The notes below the pieces were generated by a model, which saw only the letters and a list, made by a program, of their open reading frames with translations, was not told the origin of the DNA and searched no databases. The position numbers and the translations under genes are program-made. From positions 25,277 through 89,276 of the forward strand of contig JAZOBJ010000035.1 of assembly GCA_045595895.1 (NCBI GenBank): a stretch of DNA of 64,000 bases, in the 5' to 3' direction. Positions within the stretch are counted from its first letter, which is position 1. Each line of letters opens with the position of its first letter. Shown here one piece after another: positions 1 through 59,327 of this stretch. The DNA comes from Candidatus Alloscybalousia sp. GTDB lineage: Bacteria; Bacillota_I; Bacilli_A; RF39; UBA660.

Positions 1-2341
1 CTTTATGTTTTTCGAGTTCAATGTAATCTTTTTCGGTTTTGAAACATATATCCCTATAACTACAAAATTCACATCCGATTATATCTTTATCAACTTTTTT
101 TGGATTAATAGAAAAATCACCATTTAGGATTAAGTTAGTTCCTTCTTCAATTTTAGATTCAACTAGTTTATCCATTCTATCCATTTGTTTATCACTTAAT
201 ATTTTAGAATAAGCATAAAAACCTTCTTTTTTCTTTTTTAAACTACTTATAACTTCGCTATCATAATAAGTCATGTCAAACTTTTCTAATAATTCTTCAT
301 TATCAGTTGAGTATCCTACAAGTTTTAGGGCATTTTCTTTAAGTTCATTAATAGTTTTACCGGATGTGGCTTTCATATCTTTATTTATTATCTTTTGAAG
401 GTAGAAACCTACTATTTCTAGGTTTGGAAATAAAGAACTTCTTTTTATAAAATATAAATAGATTGGAAGTTGCATACCGATACCATAAATAATATTATTT
501 AAATTAGATGGGAGATGTCCTGTCTTATAATCCGTAACAGCTACTAGTGTTCTATTTGGTTCTTTTAAAAAACTAATTTTATCTACAATGCCAACAAAGT
601 TAACTGGGATGTTTTTATTATTTTTAATAGGAATAGAAAATCTCTTTTCATATAAAAATTCGTTAAAATAACTATAATTTTTATGTTTATTAATTATTTC
701 TATATCGTATTTTAATTCTTGTTTTAATTTTTCTAGAAGAATTATTTTATCAAAAGTAAATTCATATTTACTTGCTTCTTTATTCCATGATTCATCAAAA
801 TTAAAATTACTATTAAAACACTGCGACAAAACATAGTGAAAAATATTGCCAATATTCATATAAAATTCATCTATGTTTTCTTCTTTTATATTTAAGATGT
901 TACTAATATAGTATCTAAAGCCACAACGATAGTATTCATCAATGGTTGAATATGAAATGTTAAATGGATTTTTAAGATTGGCTAATAATTTATCATTATT
1001 AATACCTTTAAATTTATTATCATAAGTATGATATTTTAAATCTTTATAGTTTGGCATTAAATATTCTAAATTATCACTAATTGTTCCATATTTATAGAAT
1101 TTATCATATTCTTTAGATAAAGTTATTTCATTATAAAAATTAGAAATATTAAATGGTATCTTAGGATTTTTTATTACCTCATATCCCTCTTCTTTTATTA
1201 GTAAACATGGATTGTATGAATTAAATGCTGTTTTTAATTTATATGTAATAGTTAGATTTATATCTTGATTCAATTGATTTTTAAGATCGTTTAAACTGTT
1301 TATATTATTACTATTACTATCAAATAAACCTAATTCAGTTTTCATACTGTCACTTAGAAAATCTTCATCTTTATAGATATTTGGATAGTTTTCTTTATTA
1401 AAACCAATTAAATATGCATAATCATTTTTGTTGACTTCGTATAAATCACATGTACTTACACAATCAGTTTCATGTTTTTGGTTTAGATATGTATTTTTAA
1501 GATCATTTTCAATCATTTCATATAGTTCTTTTGTATCACAATCAAACTCGACATATTGATTAAAAATATTAATTATCTTATTTAAAACTTCAACATCTAT
1601 TTTCTCTTTATAAGTATCGATTATTTCTGAAAATGAAATGTTATCTTTTATTTTAGTTAATATCTCTTTACCTATTTCTATATCATAAAGCGATATTTTT
1701 TTATCAGATTTTAATGGTATATGGCACCAATTAAAAATAGTTTTTAATAGGTTTTCATATTCACTACTTGGAGTTATAATCTTAATATTATTAATTGAAA
1801 TGCCATTATCTATTTTTACCTTAATATCATGACAAATGTAAGCTATTTCGTCTTCAATATCATCGAATTCATATACGGTGTGTATTCTTTTATTATGATT
1901 TTCTTTAATATGATTGAAATTTGGGAGATTTGAGAATATTTTTTCATAAAATGGGGCAAGTTTATTATATCCATATACTATTACATTAGTTTTATTTAGA
2001 TAATACTTAAAAAAAGGATTCTTTATTAATAGTTTTCTGACTTCTAATTCTTTTTTTACAGTTAATAAAGTATTTAATTTTTTTGATTTATAGTTTTTAT
2101 CTTCTAAATAATAAAGTGACTGTAAATATTCTATTATGATATTATATTTAAGGTTTATTTTATTCATTAAATGAAAGATAGTTTTTTTATTATATGAAAA
2201 GAAGTAGTTTTCAGTAAATTCTTTTAAATCCATTATTTTATATGAAATTAGTTTACTGCTTTTATTTAATTCTACTACTACTTTCTTCTTTATACTATTT
2301 GGACATATTATTAAGTTATTTTCTTTTAAATTGTCTATCAT
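1..2341 (-). CDS. addB: ATP-dependent helicase/nuclease subunit B (AddB/RexB). N-terminus at 2341; C-terminus runs to or just past the left window edge, which is why it is absent from the ORF track.
   Basis: My own translation of the reverse strand gives an uninterrupted ORF of more than 780 aa starting MIDNLKENNLIICPNS. The PD-(D/E)XK RecB-nuclease motif AVTDYKTGHLP lies near 520-545. The C-terminus at positions 1-80 reads DIIGCEFCSYRDICF, the AddB Fe-S Cys cluster. No Walker A in the N-terminal region. Confidence 0.6.
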   Translation of the reverse strand, partial: MIDNLKENNLIICPNSIKKKVVVELNKSSKLISYKIMDLKEFTENYFFSYNKKTIFHLMNKINLKYNIIIEYLQSLYYLEDKNYKSKKLNTLLTVKKELEVRKLLIKNPFFKYYLNKTNVIVYGYNKLAPFYEKIFSNLPNFNHIKENHNKRIHTVYEFDDIEDEIAYICHDIKVKIDNGISINNIKIITPSSEYENLLKTIFNWCHIPLKSDKKISLYDIEIGKEILTKIKDNISFSEIIDTYKEKIDVEVLNKIINIFNQYVEFDCDTKELYEMIENDLKNTYLNQKHETDCVSTCDLYEVNKNDYAYLIGFNKENYPNIYKDEDFLSDSMKTELGLFDSNSNNINSLNDLKNQLNQDINLTITYKLKTAFNSYNPCLLIKEEGYEVIKNPKIPFNISNFYNEITLSKEYDKFYKYGTISDNLEYLMPNYKDLKYHTYDNKFKGINNDKLLANLKNPFNISYSTIDEYYRCGFRYYISNILNIKEENIDEFYMNIGNIFHYVLSQCFNSNFNFDESWNKEASKYEFTFDKIILLEKLKQELKYDIEIINKHKNYSYFNEFLYEKRFSIPIKNNKNIPVNFVGIVDKISFLKEPNRTLVAVTDYKTGHLPSNLNNIIYGIGMQLPIYLYFIKRSSLFPNLEIVGFYLQKIINKDMKATSGKTINELKENALKLVGYSTDNEELLEKFDMTYYDSEVISSLKKKKEGFYAYSKILSDKQMDRMDKLVESKIEEGTNLILNGDFSINPKKVDKDIIGCEFCSYRDICFKTEKDYIELEKHK

Positions 2342-7241: not shown

Positions 7242-7949
7242 CTATTTCAAAATTGATTCTAAAGCTATTTTAATCATTGTGTGGAAAGAATTTTGTCTTT
7301 CTTCGCTAGTTGTTTCTTGTTTTGTCACTAAACTATCTGATACTGTTAAAATACATGTAGCTTTTTTATTTAAACTTTTAGCATTTGTGAATAAAGCAAA
7401 TGTTTCCATTTCTACTCCAAGTACGTTGTATTTATTAACTAATTCTTGATAATTATTATTTTCTTTATAAAAAACATCACTACAATGAATTATTCCATTT
7501 TTTGTATCTACATTTAAATCATTAGCTGCGCTAATTAATTTTTTATTTAATTCTTCACTACTATAAATGATATTATCTTCTAAATTCATTTGTTCTTTAG
7601 CATAATTGGATACTGAATATGAACCTTCTACGATAATTGTATCATATAAATTCAATTTTTCTTTATATGCACCACAAGTCCCTACTCTAATTATTTCTTC
7701 TACATCATAAAATTTAAATAATTCATAAGAATAAATTCCCATACTTGGATTACCCATACCTGATGCAAAAATAGTTACTTCCTTTCCTTTATAAGTTCCA
7801 GTATAGGCTAGAATATTTCTAACTTGATTTACTAATTTATAATTTTCTAAATAAGTTTCTGCTATCATTTTGGCTCTTAGAGGATCTCCAGGCATTAAAA
7901 CGATTTTAGCTATATCTTCTTTTTTTGCTTCAATATGTGCTGTTGCCAT
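7242..7949 (-). CDS. deoD: Purine nucleoside phosphorylase, DeoD type
   Basis: MATAHIEAKKEDIAKIVLMPGDPLRAKMIAE...GMGNPSMGIYSYEL...IIRVGTCGAY matches the PNP/UDP family-1 signatures. Confidence 0.85.
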   Translation of the reverse strand: MATAHIEAKKEDIAKIVLMPGDPLRAKMIAETYLENYKLVNQVRNILAYTGTYKGKEVTIFASGMGNPSMGIYSYELFKFYDVEEIIRVGTCGAYKEKLNLYDTIIVEGSYSVSNYAKEQMNLEDNIIYSSEELNKKLISAANDLNVDTKNGIIHCSDVFYKENNNYQELVNKYNVLGVEMETFALFTNAKSLNKKATCILTVSDSLVTKQETTSEERQNSFHTMIKIALESILK

Positions 7950-22932: not shown

Positions 22933-22949
22933 AAGAAACACCTCCATAA

Positions 22950-23063
22950 AATATAAAAAAGATGGACATAAAAGTCCACCTTTAAAAAACCTAATTAATA
23001 TAATTTTAATTATTATATCTAATGGCTCTTTACCCAAAGCTACTCGCTATCAGGTGGACTTTT
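22950..23063 (-). promoter_or_regulatory. infC-rpmI-rplT 5' leader with terminator hairpin (GGUGGAC-UUUUAU-GUCCAUC + U6) and an upstream complementary segment (AAAAGUCCACC); L20-type attenuator candidate
   Basis: Hairpin at 22961-22980 followed by a U-run directly upstream of the infC SD. The 11-nt segment at 23053-23063 is complementary to the 5' half of the terminator, giving mutually exclusive structures. Confidence 0.4.
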
Positions 23064-23092
23064 AATCGCTTTCCTTTTTTAATTTCTATTCA

Positions 23093-56509: not shown

Positions 56510-57148
56510 TTAATAATTCTTCATTATTTTTCTAATTTTTTTATAATTAGGATAATTTGTTTCTACTACTTCCCAAAATCTACTTGAGTGGTTCATTTCA
56601 ATAAAATGTGATAGTTCATGAACGATTACATAATCAAGACATGAAATATCTTTTTTCATTAATTCTAAGTTAAGTGTAACTCTTACTAATTTTGAATTGC
56701 ATACACCCCAACGTGAAGTCATTTTTCTAATCGTTAAAGATGGATATGGGATTTTTCTATCAAAATTATTATACCAGTAGTCTAATCTTTCTTGAAATAA
56801 TTTAGTTGCCTCTTTTTTTAGCCATTTATCAATATCTAGGTTACTTGGTATAAATATTTTTTCTTCACCAAAAATTATATCTTTATTATTAGTTCTTACT
56901 ACATCGTATTTTGTACCTAAATAGTAGAAATCTTTTTTTTGACTTTGTTTATATGCTTGCTTCTCATACATTTTAATGATAGAATCCATATTTTCATTTA
57001 TTACTTCTTTTACTTTTTTATCAGTCATAAAAAAAGATGTTGTGATATGGAGCTTTAAATCTTCTTTTACTCTTAGGTACATATTTTTGTTACCAACTTT
57101 TTTAGTTATGATAACTTCTACTTTCTCATCATTTATATTAATGTACAT
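56510..57148 (-). CDS. YgjP-like DUF45 metal-dependent hydrolase
   Basis: C-terminal YVIVHELSHFIEMNHSSRFW (HExxH...H). Confidence 0.65.
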   Translation of the reverse strand: MYININDEKVEVIITKKVGNKNMYLRVKEDLKLHITTSFFMTDKKVKEVINENMDSIIKMYEKQAYKQSQKKDFYYLGTKYDVVRTNNKDIIFGEEKIFIPSNLDIDKWLKKEATKLFQERLDYWYNNFDRKIPYPSLTIRKMTSRWGVCNSKLVRVTLNLELMKKDISCLDYVIVHELSHFIEMNHSSRFWEVVETNYPNYKKIRKIMKNY

Positions 57149-57495: not shown

Positions 57496-57525
57496 TTGAC
57501 AATTAGTTATTAATCGTTATATAAT
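57496..57525 (+). promoter_or_regulatory. Sigma-A promoter (TTGACA ... TATATAAT) driving the tRNA
   Basis: TTGACAattagttattaatcgtTATATAAT about 25 nt upstream of tRNA position 1. Confidence 0.55.
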
Positions 57526-57550: not shown

Positions 57551-57627
<77 letters not shown>

Positions 57628-57640
57628 CTTGATAATATAA

Positions 57641-57668
57641 AGCGAACCCTATCGGTTCGTTTTTTTTT
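57641..57668 (+). terminator. Rho-independent terminator after the tRNA
   Basis: CGAACC-CTATC-GGTTCG followed by T9. Confidence 0.6.
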
Positions 57669-57855
57669 GTTAATTTATTATAGTTTTATGAGATTAATGT
57701 TTATTGTTTACATTTTGTTATAAAATAAGTTTCATGTTATAATGTATTTGTCAAGGAAACTTGCATAAAATAAAAAAGGGAAATACTTAACTTTTCCGAG
57801 TTGAGTACTTGCCCTGTTTAATGGTTAAAGTACTTAATCTTTTTTAGATTGAGTA

Positions 57856-57945
57856 CTATTTTTTTATGCATAGAATCATTAAAGAGACTATTAATAAAAT
57901 GATAATTAGTATTAGAAATGAGATTAACAAATCTTTTTTCTTCAT
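57856..57945 (-). CDS. 29-aa hydrophobic peptide MKKKDLLISFLILIIILLIVSLMILCIKK (type I toxin-like or small membrane protein)
   Basis: Strong SD GGAAGGAGG 8 nt upstream of the ATG. Single TM helix flanked by Lys. The transcript would be bounded by 14-bp perfect inverted repeats (57800-57813, 57978-57991) and a 3' hairpin plus U-run (57776-57800). Not in the ORF track because it is shorter than 60 aa. Confidence 0.35.
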   Translation of the reverse strand: MKKKDLLISFLILIIILLIVSLMILCIKK

Positions 57946-58075
57946 AAATATCAAGCCTCCTTCCTATATTAGAAGTTGGCAAGTACTCAACAGTTAGTAT
58001 TCTCAAAACAAATTATACAATAAGTAAACTTTATATTCAATCGAAAAAGTATATTTTTTATAAAAAAAGAAGGTT

Positions 58076-59032
58076 CTACCCTTCTAAAATATTACAACAA
58101 TTCTTAGTTATTACTTCTTTCCCTTCTACTTGGAAAATTACACTTTTTATATCATATGTTGCGAATACTGATTCAGATATTGTGTATGTGACTTCTTCTA
58201 GTAATTTATCATTAGTAAAAATGTTATTATTAAAATTCAAAGTCATGATCTCATCTTCTATCTGATAACTTATTAATTCAGTATCTTGATTAAGTAGCGA
58301 TATTAAATTTGATTCATAGATATAATGACTAGCTAAATTATCTATAATTATACTAATTTTTTCTCTATCATCATTTAAATATTTAGTTACTGGCACATAA
58401 TATGAATTATCATTAATTTCATCTAAATAATATAAAGTAACTTTTTTAATTCCATTTAAATTATCTATATCAAATACTTTATTTATTCCAAAATTTCTAT
58501 TTAACACTTGTGGTAATTGTTTCTTAGTTTTAGGAAGTTCTGTAAGCGAAGTTCCATCCACCTTAATAATTACTCCTTCTATTCCATCAATATTTATTAA
58601 ACTGTAGGTTATTGCTTCAACTATTCTTTCTTCTAAAATAATATCTGTTTCTAATAATTCTTTACTAAAGTCTAGTGTGATTATTTTATCATTTATTTCG
58701 ATATTATTTAATTTAGTATTAGCTGGAATGATACCTGATAAACCATTGGGAATCTTACTACTTTTTTGGACTGTTAGATAATCAATAATACCTCTAATTT
58801 TAGTATTTAAATTTTCTTCATTTAATAAAACATTAGTTTTTACTAAATAATTATTAGGACCTAATAAGTATATTTCATTAGTACCAACATTTGTTACATA
58901 TTCTATATCAATATCCGGGTCTAAATAATTACTATTACTATTTAATTTTTCTGGAATAATACAAATTACTAAAACTGTTAGAAAAGAAAATGTAGTTATG
59001 ATTATCTTTCTAAGCGCTTTTCTTTTTAACAT
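58076..59032 (-). CDS. gerM: GerM-like lipoprotein with two GerMN domains
   Basis: N-terminal signal or lipobox-like ITTFSFLTVLVICII. Repeated GerMN-type blocks (KITLDFSKELL..., VTLYYLDEINDNSYYVPVTKY). 318 aa. Confidence 0.55.
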   Translation of the reverse strand: MLKRKALRKIIITTFSFLTVLVICIIPEKLNSNSNYLDPDIDIEYVTNVGTNEIYLLGPNNYLVKTNVLLNEENLNTKIRGIIDYLTVQKSSKIPNGLSGIIPANTKLNNIEINDKIITLDFSKELLETDIILEERIVEAITYSLINIDGIEGVIIKVDGTSLTELPKTKKQLPQVLNRNFGINKVFDIDNLNGIKKVTLYYLDEINDNSYYVPVTKYLNDDREKISIIIDNLASHYIYESNLISLLNQDTELISYQIEDEIMTLNFNNNIFTNDKLLEEVTYTISESVFATYDIKSVIFQVEGKEVITKNCCNILEG

Positions 59033-59111: not shown

Positions 59112-59327
59112 TTATAATTCAATTTCTTTTAATTTTAATAACTCTACAACAGCAGCAGCTCTACCGTTTACATCTAATTTTTGGATGACATTAGAAATAT
59201 GATTTCTAACAGTTTTTTCACTGATTCCTAATTCATCTGCTATATCTTTAGTCGTTTTATTTAATATAAGTAAAGAGAAAACTTCATATTCTCTTTTGGT
59301 TAATATTTTAGCACTCACTTTTTTCAC
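59112..59327 (-). CDS. gerE: Spore-coat transcription regulator GerE (LuxR-type HTH)
   Basis: 71 aa: LTKREYEVFSLLILNKTTKDIADELGISEKTVRNHISNVIQKLDVNGRAAAVVELLKLKEIEL, near-identical in pattern to Bacillus GerE. Confidence 0.85.
   Translation of the reverse strand: MKKVSAKILTKREYEVFSLLILNKTTKDIADELGISEKTVRNHISNVIQKLDVNGRAAAVVELLKLKEIEL

Follow-up and report, generated by a model that had tools for sequence, protein, structure and literature searches.

A small unannotated module between gerM and a tRNA-Arg gene of Candidatus Alloscybalousia sp. is probably a chromosomal type I toxin-antitoxin (TA) module, of a family not yet described. It lies in a 64,000 nucleotide (nt) stretch of contig JAZOBJ010000035.1 (positions 25,277 to 89,276, hereafter the window), where it spans positions 57715-58040 and is bounded by two outward-placed promoters. 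An earlier note on this DNA had proposed the type I reading, and every feature of it that could be tested at the sequence level was found; the range given there, 57776-57995, lies inside the module but is too narrow. The convergent RNA gene on the plus strand, whose promoter and terminator were both found by scan, goes beyond what the note had described.

A presumed toxin gene and its convergent antisense gene

The presumed toxin is encoded on the minus strand. A promoter scan placed its promoter at 58012-58040, with a −35 box TTGAAT (58040-58035), a 17-nt spacer and a −10 box TATAAT (58017-58012); judged by its sequence, it is a moderate sigma-A promoter. The predicted mRNA is ~240 nt long (58005-57767), its start being placed 7-9 nt past the −10 box and its end at the U-run UUUUUUAUUUU (57777-57767), which was read from the sequence and is kept in the alignment of relatives. 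It carries the open reading frame (ORF) announced by the earlier note, 29 codons and a TAG (ATG 57945 to TAG 57856, minus strand), for the peptide MKKKDLLISFLILIIILLIVSLMILCIKK, a single hydrophobic span of 22 residues capped by lysines. The Shine-Dalgarno (SD) sequence GGAAGGAGG occupies 57964-57956 on the same strand: the ribosome binding site claimed before is there, albeit with a spacer of 10 nt, and not 8, between GGAGG and ATG. With respect to published criteria for type I toxins (PMC2887945), the ORF is below 70 amino acids (aa), specifies a hydrophobic transmembrane peptide, and is genuinely coding.

The coding character was established with relatives, designated below by locus numbers (L001 and so on). 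Six loci, in metagenome-assembled genomes of uncultured gut Bacilli, came from scanning species genomes on the basis of GerM, and a scan of metagenomes with the DNA pattern GTACTYAAYN{5,9}RGTTRAGTAYTTCC gave 61 more, mostly from human gut and rumen. The family set consists of the 61 metagenomic loci and 3 gerM-linked ones; L046 was rejected as a probable chance match to the pattern. About 45 of the 61 metagenomic loci have an intact peptide ORF, and 37 cassettes have exactly 29 codons. Among 29 unique nucleotide sequences, the synonymous (pS) and nonsynonymous (pN) values were 0.37 and 0.10 respectively, a ratio of 0.28, and the entropy at codon positions 1, 2 and 3 was 0.46, 0.15 and 0.54. 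We conclude that the 29-codon ORF is under purifying selection. The 62-aa ORF annotated over the same DNA (57818-58006) is in a different frame from the toxin ORF; its frame gives a pN/pS of 2.72 and an open stretch ranging from 28 to 62 codons among relatives, so that the earlier dismissal of this ORF as spurious holds. The A-run preceding the stop codon (AAAAAAATAG) varies in length in L036, L044, L051 and L061 (proteins P0004-P0006), producing extended C-termini such as ...IKKSTQFTNRK...; a sequencing error may be the cause, or else a slippage by which the toxin is inactivated.

The antisense gene has its promoter on the plus strand at 57715-57743 (−35 TTGTTA, 17-nt spacer, extended −10 TGtTATAAT). 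Its predicted RNA, ~115 nt long (57750-57866), is made of a 5′ hairpin (57750-57764), a second stem-loop (57777-57816) and an intrinsic terminator with its U-run. The terminator stem-loop (57829-57857), a match of the plus-strand scan, is located just past the stop codon as read on the toxin strand, and the U-run (TTTTTTT, 57859-57865) overlaps the stop codon and the last lysine codons of the toxin. The predicted overlap of the two RNAs is therefore ~100 nt (57767-57866), i.e. the whole 3′ untranslated region (UTR) of the toxin mRNA and the last 11 nt of its ORF. The antisense RNA folds at −34 kcal/mol (z = −5.2 relative to shuffled sequence), and a covariance model built from relatives located a single copy in the window, at 57738-57867 of the plus strand, with a score of 132.6 bits. 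With a promoter and a terminator of its own and complementarity to the toxin mRNA, it would qualify, at the level of sequence, as a cis-antisense gene.

Both promoters are recurrent in the family. The antisense promoter, TTGNNN-17-TGnTATTAT, was found in 44 of 55 unique relatives; the extended TG is present in 43 of these, and TTGACA is a frequent −35 box. The toxin promoter, TTGnnn-16..18-TAnnnT at the same distance, was found in 36 of 38 unique intact relatives, usually with a weak −35 box (TTGTTT). The antisense promoter, with its extended TG, is therefore expected to be the stronger one. In L018, L026 and L034 the body of the antisense gene starts 69 nt from a co-oriented tRNA-Leu(TAG) gene, whose 3′ end takes the place of the usual −35 box; the antisense RNA of these three loci may come from read-through and processing of a tRNA operon.

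The structure of the antisense RNA is also conserved. Across relatives, 93% of the cells in its two hairpins are paired, as are 96.6% in the terminator helix across 43 sequences, while the stem of the 5′ hairpin varies in sequence (GCAAG/CUUGC, GAUGAAG/CUUCAU, GAUGAGA/UCUCAU or GCAAU/AUUGC). Conserved U.G wobbles, present in 41 and 38 of 43 sequences, pair on the plus strand only, as they become C x A mismatches on the toxin strand; the one in 38 sequences belongs to the terminator hairpin (57829-57857), and in 41 of the 43 it folds more stably on the antisense strand than on the toxin strand. Such strand asymmetry argues that the plus strand is a selected RNA.

The closing helix and its variation among relatives

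The two arms of the inverted repeat, 57800-57813 and 57978-57991, form a perfect 14-nt pair, exactly as previously reported. This 14-mer has only its two sites in the window, even when 2 mismatches are tolerated, and no shuffle out of 100 produced two matches; the whole window contains just 6 inverted repeats built on an exact seed of at least 13 nt within 300 nt. The repeat is part of a larger structure. The predicted toxin mRNA folds at −58.9 kcal/mol (z = −5.1 versus 200 shuffles), with its first ~25 nt paired to the 3′ UTR, and the 14-bp repeat is the inner part of this closing helix. The 5′ half, comparable to helix P1 of bsrG mRNA (see below), is the 5′ leader at 57978-58002 on the minus strand, which includes the 5′ arm GUUGAGUACUUGCC (57991-57978); its sequence approximates stem-loop 2 of the antisense RNA without the loop. 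The −10 box of the toxin promoter lies 20-24 nt before the 5′ arm in relatives, and the transcript should therefore start at the first nucleotides of the closing helix.

The 3′ half belongs to a segment, 57778-57814, that would serve three purposes: it contains the 3′ arm (57813-57800), it is the complement of antisense stem-loop 2, and it is the probable terminator of the toxin mRNA. The last assignment is made because the segment, taken alone, folds into an imperfect stem (GGG.CAAGUAC.UCAAC / GUUA.AGUAUUUCCC, −13 kcal/mol) that abuts the U-run at 57777-57767. A simple terminator scan did not list a toxin mRNA hairpin at 57778-57814. The hairpin and U-run announced earlier at 57776-57800 both exist, but the hairpin is the larger one just described.

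The SD sequence has another partner. In both the minimum free energy (MFE) and the centroid folds, CUUCU (57975-57971) pairs with the GGAAG of the SD in a short hairpin (57956-57975, minus strand), and the predicted mean unpaired probability of the SD is 0.31, indicating partial sequestration. The partner is local (mRNA nt 27-34) and is not the long-distance helix. In relatives the corresponding pairs differ, being UUUC/GAAA, CUCUU/AAGGAG or the full CCUCC/GGAGG.

The pairing of the mRNA ends, another point of the earlier note, was predicted in the MFE fold of 35 of 36 intact cassettes, 34 of them with 22-30 long-range pairs and L059 with 16. Each pair is kept in 29-30 of 31 aligned relatives, and the 5′ arm, which lies outside the search pattern, is nevertheless conserved as well as the 3′ arm. 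Within the main subtype, one helix position goes through the series G-C, G.U and A-U.

The most informative variation came from paralogues. The covariance model of the antisense RNA detected, in the fetched loci, diverged second copies in tandem with the first. Their peptides include MKKREYNICILRLISLILLLLIILIIVIKK, MKTKTFIIKVLKLIAIILFLLIIVIVVIKK, MKTKTFVIKVLRLIAIILLLSTLLVLAIKK and MSKRDYLIFFLIIIILLLIGLLYK, and some second copies are orphan antisense genes devoid of ORF. The 5′ leader of a diverged copy has changed in step with its 3′ segment, which defines at least 3 co-varying subtypes. L059, of subtype B, has the arms GTTGGATGTCTACC and GGTAGACATTCAAC; compared with the window, 5 positions differ on both sides, and the 14 inner pairs are all intact. 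As the subtypes differ in helix register, a matrix of cognate and non-cognate duplexes was used rather than one joint alignment. Leader:3′ segment duplexes had energies of −27 to −38 kcal/mol when cognate, against −4 to −23 across types. As far as sequences can tell, this argues that the 5′-3′ helix is under selection, the joint change in paralogues being the strongest evidence.

A few copies depart from the common plan. The sole intact cassette without a predicted 5′-3′ helix is in L019 (9611-9900, near a tRNA-Ala gene), a hybrid whose 3′ half is of the main type and whose 5′ half is subtype-B-like (peptide MKIKTFIIKVLELIVIILLLSTLLVLVIKK); it is apparently a recombinant, possibly mis-regulated or decaying. 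In the second tandem copies of L047 (3272-3402) and L056 (193-321), the 5′ arm ends with CCUCC and is able to pair with the SD (AAAGGAGG); in L056 this CCUCC has an alternative partner, a GGAGG inside the 3′ arm. A genuine long-range SD switch, which the subtype of the window does not have, is possible in this subtype, to judge from these motifs.

The family is widely dispersed. Clustering of the flanks gave at least 29-37 unrelated contexts; 88 neighbour proteins matched 109 Pfam families, including EF-P, SRP54, ScpB, SpoIIP, germination protease and ZIP, and many copies adjoin tRNA genes. An association with mobile elements was rejected, the neighbours being diverse housekeeping genes with just two integrases of the XerC/D type, and no cassette copy was found in viral contigs or in phage or plasmid collections.

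At the gerM locus itself, close relatives have the cassette present, decayed or absent. L005 has an intact cassette with a GTG start and the same peptide, in which a C-to-U change in the 3′ arm turns a G-C pair into G.U. L004 has lost the promoter, 5′ UTR and start codon, and its ORF is frameshifted; in L006 the antisense half alone is left; in L001-L003 the cassette is absent. More generally, the antisense gene and its promoter are kept in six loci where the toxin gene is decayed or deleted (L004, L006, L009, L048, L064 and L066), which is the one hint, and an indirect one, that the peptide may be toxic and the RNA protective. The toxin-less gerM loci among these (all but L004) still have the final ATAAAAAAATAG of the ORF, a stretch that forms the U-tract of the antisense terminator. 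L002, without a cassette adjoining gerM, has a decayed main-type cassette 2.5 kb downstream of it (7491-7585), with a frameshifted ORF and a deletion of the post-stop hairpin and 3′ arm.

Comparison with known systems, mechanism and alternative explanations

Gram-positive type I systems typically consist of two convergent genes, with the 3′ end of the toxin mRNA overlapped by the antisense RNA (PMC8594479). The closest architecture is that of bsrG/SR4, from the SPbeta prophage of B. subtilis. Structure probing of bsrG mRNA showed that nt 1-35 pair with nt 232-262 as helix P1, and that the SD is held in a 4-bp hairpin just inside P1; binding of SR4 frees nt 1-33, the 5′ strand of P1, and extends the SD helix to 8 bp, and RNase III cuts the bsrG/SR4 duplex (PMC3834814, PMC6562991). 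The window shares a P1-like helix, an SD in a short hairpin on top of it and an antisense RNA directed against its 3′ half, all in the same order. It differs by the lack of any sequence similarity for toxin or antitoxin, by a shorter antisense RNA (~115 nt versus 183 nt for SR4), and by the absence of a separate terminator stem-loop after P1, as the 3′ half of P1 itself refolds into the terminator. In addition, the cassette is not on a prophage, and its family is multi-copy with several co-varying subtypes.

Other B. subtilis systems, txpA/RatA, bsrE/SR5 and yonT/SR6, have the same convergent layout with 3′ overlap; their ribosome binding site is sequestered by a few base pairs and the antitoxin promotes RNase III-dependent decay (PMC6562991). 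No homology with them was found, the overlap in the window reaches only the last 11 nt of the ORF, and they are mostly single copies borne by prophages, unlike the present family. In the Gram-negative hok/Sok and aapA/IsoA systems, a stable primary transcript is closed by end pairing and has local anti-SD hairpins (PMC6733600), two traits common to the window. There, however, the long-distance interaction itself masks the SD or the translation activator, the mRNA becomes active by 3′ trimming, and it is the 5′ part or the ORF that the antisense RNA overlaps. In the window, a local anti-SD located upstream masks the SD, and the target of the antisense RNA is the 3′ UTR with the 3′ arm of the long-distance helix. 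Assignment to the hok/Sok or aapA/IsoA type was rejected on these two grounds.

With fst/RNAII (par of pAD1) and SprA1/SprA1as, which are convergent, share a terminator region and have a repeated element that occurs both in the antisense gene and at the toxin mRNA 5′ end (PMC8594479), the window has in common the convergence, the shared terminator region and a repeated 5′ element. The par repeats make the 5′ ends of the two RNAs complementary outside the overlap, whereas in the window the DNA carries the repeat in inverted orientation; the 5′ arm of the toxin mRNA and the antisense RNA thus read in the same sense and are rivals for the 3′ arm. For this reason, and as the peptide has no Fst match in Pfam, membership of the Fst/RNAII family was rejected. 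Multi-copy chromosomal type I loci are known to be duplicated in tandem, to form paralogous classes of specificity and to have ORFs that annotation overlooks (PMC2887945). The present family has these traits in common with ibs/Sib, ldr/Rdl and zor/Orz, which are duplicated in tandem within one intergenic region, but these belong to Proteobacteria, have other RNA layouts and show no homology with it. The tandem duplication, spread over many loci and toxin-first decay seen here are typical of chromosomal type I loci (PMC2887945). Overall, the cassette is by sequence no member of bsrG/SR4, txpA/RatA, fst or hok, and is bsrG/SR4-like in its predicted architecture.

These likenesses suggest how the module may work. 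The minus-strand promoter would give the ~240-nt mRNA for the 29-residue single-span membrane peptide, the presumed toxin. Pairing of its ~25-nt 5′ end with the 3′ UTR would make the mRNA compact and probably long-lived, the SD being partly held in the short hairpin with the upstream CUUCU. From the stronger, extended −10 promoter would come the presumed antitoxin, an RNA of ~115 nt. The final ~100 nt of the toxin mRNA, with the post-stop hairpin, the terminator and the 3′ half of the closing helix, would be fully complementary to it. Pairing would probably begin at complementary hairpin loops, with a loop-loop contact at the post-stop hairpin; the duplex would then spread, displacing the 5′ leader and opening the closing helix, and RNase III would cut the long duplex and destroy the toxin mRNA, as in txpA/RatA and bsrG/SR4. 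The freed leader may in addition extend the SD hairpin through GCC:GGC, as reported for bsrG. This extension does form in folds of the window, L016 and L041 with the 3′ region masked; control of translation is a possibility by analogy with bsrG, which the thermodynamic model does not support. What the sequences show are the features themselves, their conservation, the selection on the coding frame and the co-variation of the helices; in this scheme we infer the transcripts and their ends, the toxicity, the pairing pathway, the cleavage by RNase III and the effect on translation.

Some further ideas are tentative, and we rather doubt that they will hold. The leader could be a built-in copy of the antitoxin recognition stem carried by its own target, setting up a three-way competition for the 3′ arm; subtypes A, B, B2 and C could be orthogonal immunity classes; orphan antisense genes that have a promoter could be anti-addiction elements acting in trans on paralogous toxins at other places in the genome; and the leader CCUCC of B2 could switch between the SD and a decoy GGAGG of the 3′ arm, as a long-range switch of translation.

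Several points weigh against the TA reading. Expression, toxicity of the peptide and its neutralisation are predictions from sequence. The C-terminal tail of the peptide is just KK, shorter than that of many known toxins. Masking the 3′ region in silico left mean SD accessibility at 0.31 in both states, and lowered it in 15 of 35 cassettes. Helices of the main subtype are nearly invariant, hence a weak co-variation to which RNAalifold and pair counts add little, and conservation of the 3′ element is partly by construction, as the search pattern fixed part of it. The same pattern targeted the antisense half, making toxin-only loci invisible, and the notion that the toxin is lost first rests mainly on a few loci ascertained through gerM. 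Finally, peptide and RNA fall in no known toxin or antitoxin family: Pfam-A has no family for the peptide at E ≤ 1, short peptides limiting its sensitivity, NCBIfam gave no relevant peptide match at E ≤ 10, Rfam no meaningful match at E ≤ 10 besides tRNA, and PHROGs no relevant match.

According to these four collections the family is new; T1TAdb lay outside the comparison, so a prior listing there is possible. The exact peptide sequence was absent from a collection of 15 billion proteins, exact look-ups of GerM and of the 29-, 32- and 62-aa products returned no record, and a full-text literature search on the peptide motif found nothing. A 43-aa relative extended in frame, used as query against a protein database, retrieved just six unnamed and artefactually extended ORFs.

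Could the peptide be harmless? A small membrane protein, regulatory or associated with the envelope or the spore, whose level is tuned by a cis-antisense RNA and which has no TA behaviour, would show the purifying selection expected of any functional small protein and would be at home among housekeeping and sporulation genes, which are indeed the neighbours here, and not mobile elements; moreover, some predicted type I toxins of B. subtilis, e.g. BsrE, are weakly toxic (review, PMC6562991). We nevertheless consider this explanation unlikely. Such a number of unrelated contexts (at least 29), together with frequent tandem duplication, is unexpected for a fixed cellular job, and so is the presence, decay or absence of the cassette at one locus in close relatives. 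Loci that lose the ORF retain the antisense gene and its promoter, and the elaborate translational and structural restraint of the mRNA is typical of toxin mRNAs. Retention of the antisense gene could itself be turned into another explanation, in which the main functional product would be the plus-strand small RNA, directed in trans at other targets, with the peptide ORF as a passenger, secondary or in decay: no segment is better conserved than the antisense part, and it is found alone, with its promoter, in at least 9 loci. This is quite improbable in our view, since three quarters or so of the metagenomic loci (~45 of 61) have an intact 29-codon ORF with SD and promoter, at a pN/pS of 0.28, and since the toxin 5′ leader co-evolves with the 3′ segment, unlike a passenger; orphan antisense genes are equally explained by toxin-first decay or by protection in trans against paralogous toxins.

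The earlier note had itself raised a generic repeat family lacking the ORF. A non-coding repeat of the miniature inverted-repeat transposable element (MITE) type, or a mere bidirectional terminator between gerM and the tRNA gene, with an ORF arising by chance, would account for the many copies with inverted repeats inside, their frequent position beside tRNA genes and the terminator-like hairpins on both strands. This explanation is largely refuted, and we give it hardly any credit. What is repeated is the whole cassette, with the ORF present or visibly decayed, and copies without ORF are deletions retaining the antisense gene. Conservation stops at the two outward −35 boxes and not at terminal inverted repeats, the arms being inside the transcript; the length and frame of the ORF are kept, with an asymmetry between codon positions; viral, phage and plasmid collections are free of copies; and gerM (58085-58068) and the tRNA gene (57639-57663) each have a terminator of their own, both located by a promoter/terminator scan. 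A type I TA module remains the reading that we favour.

The gerM locus and significance of the family

The neighbours are those named in the earlier note. The tRNA-Arg(TCT) gene occupies 57551-57627 on the plus strand and has its own consensus promoter (57496-57525). On the other side, the 318-aa gene upstream of the cassette has a match to the Germane domain (Pfam, E = 2.4×10−25) and is GerM-like. Just upstream of gerM, on the minus strand, a 71-aa helix-turn-helix protein of the GerE/LuxR type is encoded (59112-59327; Pfam GerE, E = 3×10−19), and a gene for a YgjP-like metallopeptidase (56510-57148) lies on the far side of the tRNA. In the window the tRNA-Arg(TCT) gene is on the strand opposite to gerM, an inverted arrangement relative to L004, L005, L006, L009 and L064, where the two genes are co-oriented. 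The whole-window scan also gave two other inverted repeats: one (58971-58984 and 59203-59216) is perfect over 14 nt and spans the GerE-like gene and the 5′ end of gerM, and the other (22948-22981 and 23052-23085) has 34-nt arms, 71% complementary and 70 nt apart.

If the favoured reading is correct, a type I TA family would be added to an uncultured, spore-forming, low-GC lineage of gut Bacilli that had none annotated. Gene callers miss the 29-aa peptide, and may call the spurious 62-aa ORF instead. With dozens of copies in at least three co-varying classes, the family would provide a natural data set on how a closing helix, a terminator and an antisense target can share one sequence, and the same copies could show how paralogous type I systems stay orthogonal. 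Such cassettes can also hinder cloning and genome engineering of these organisms.

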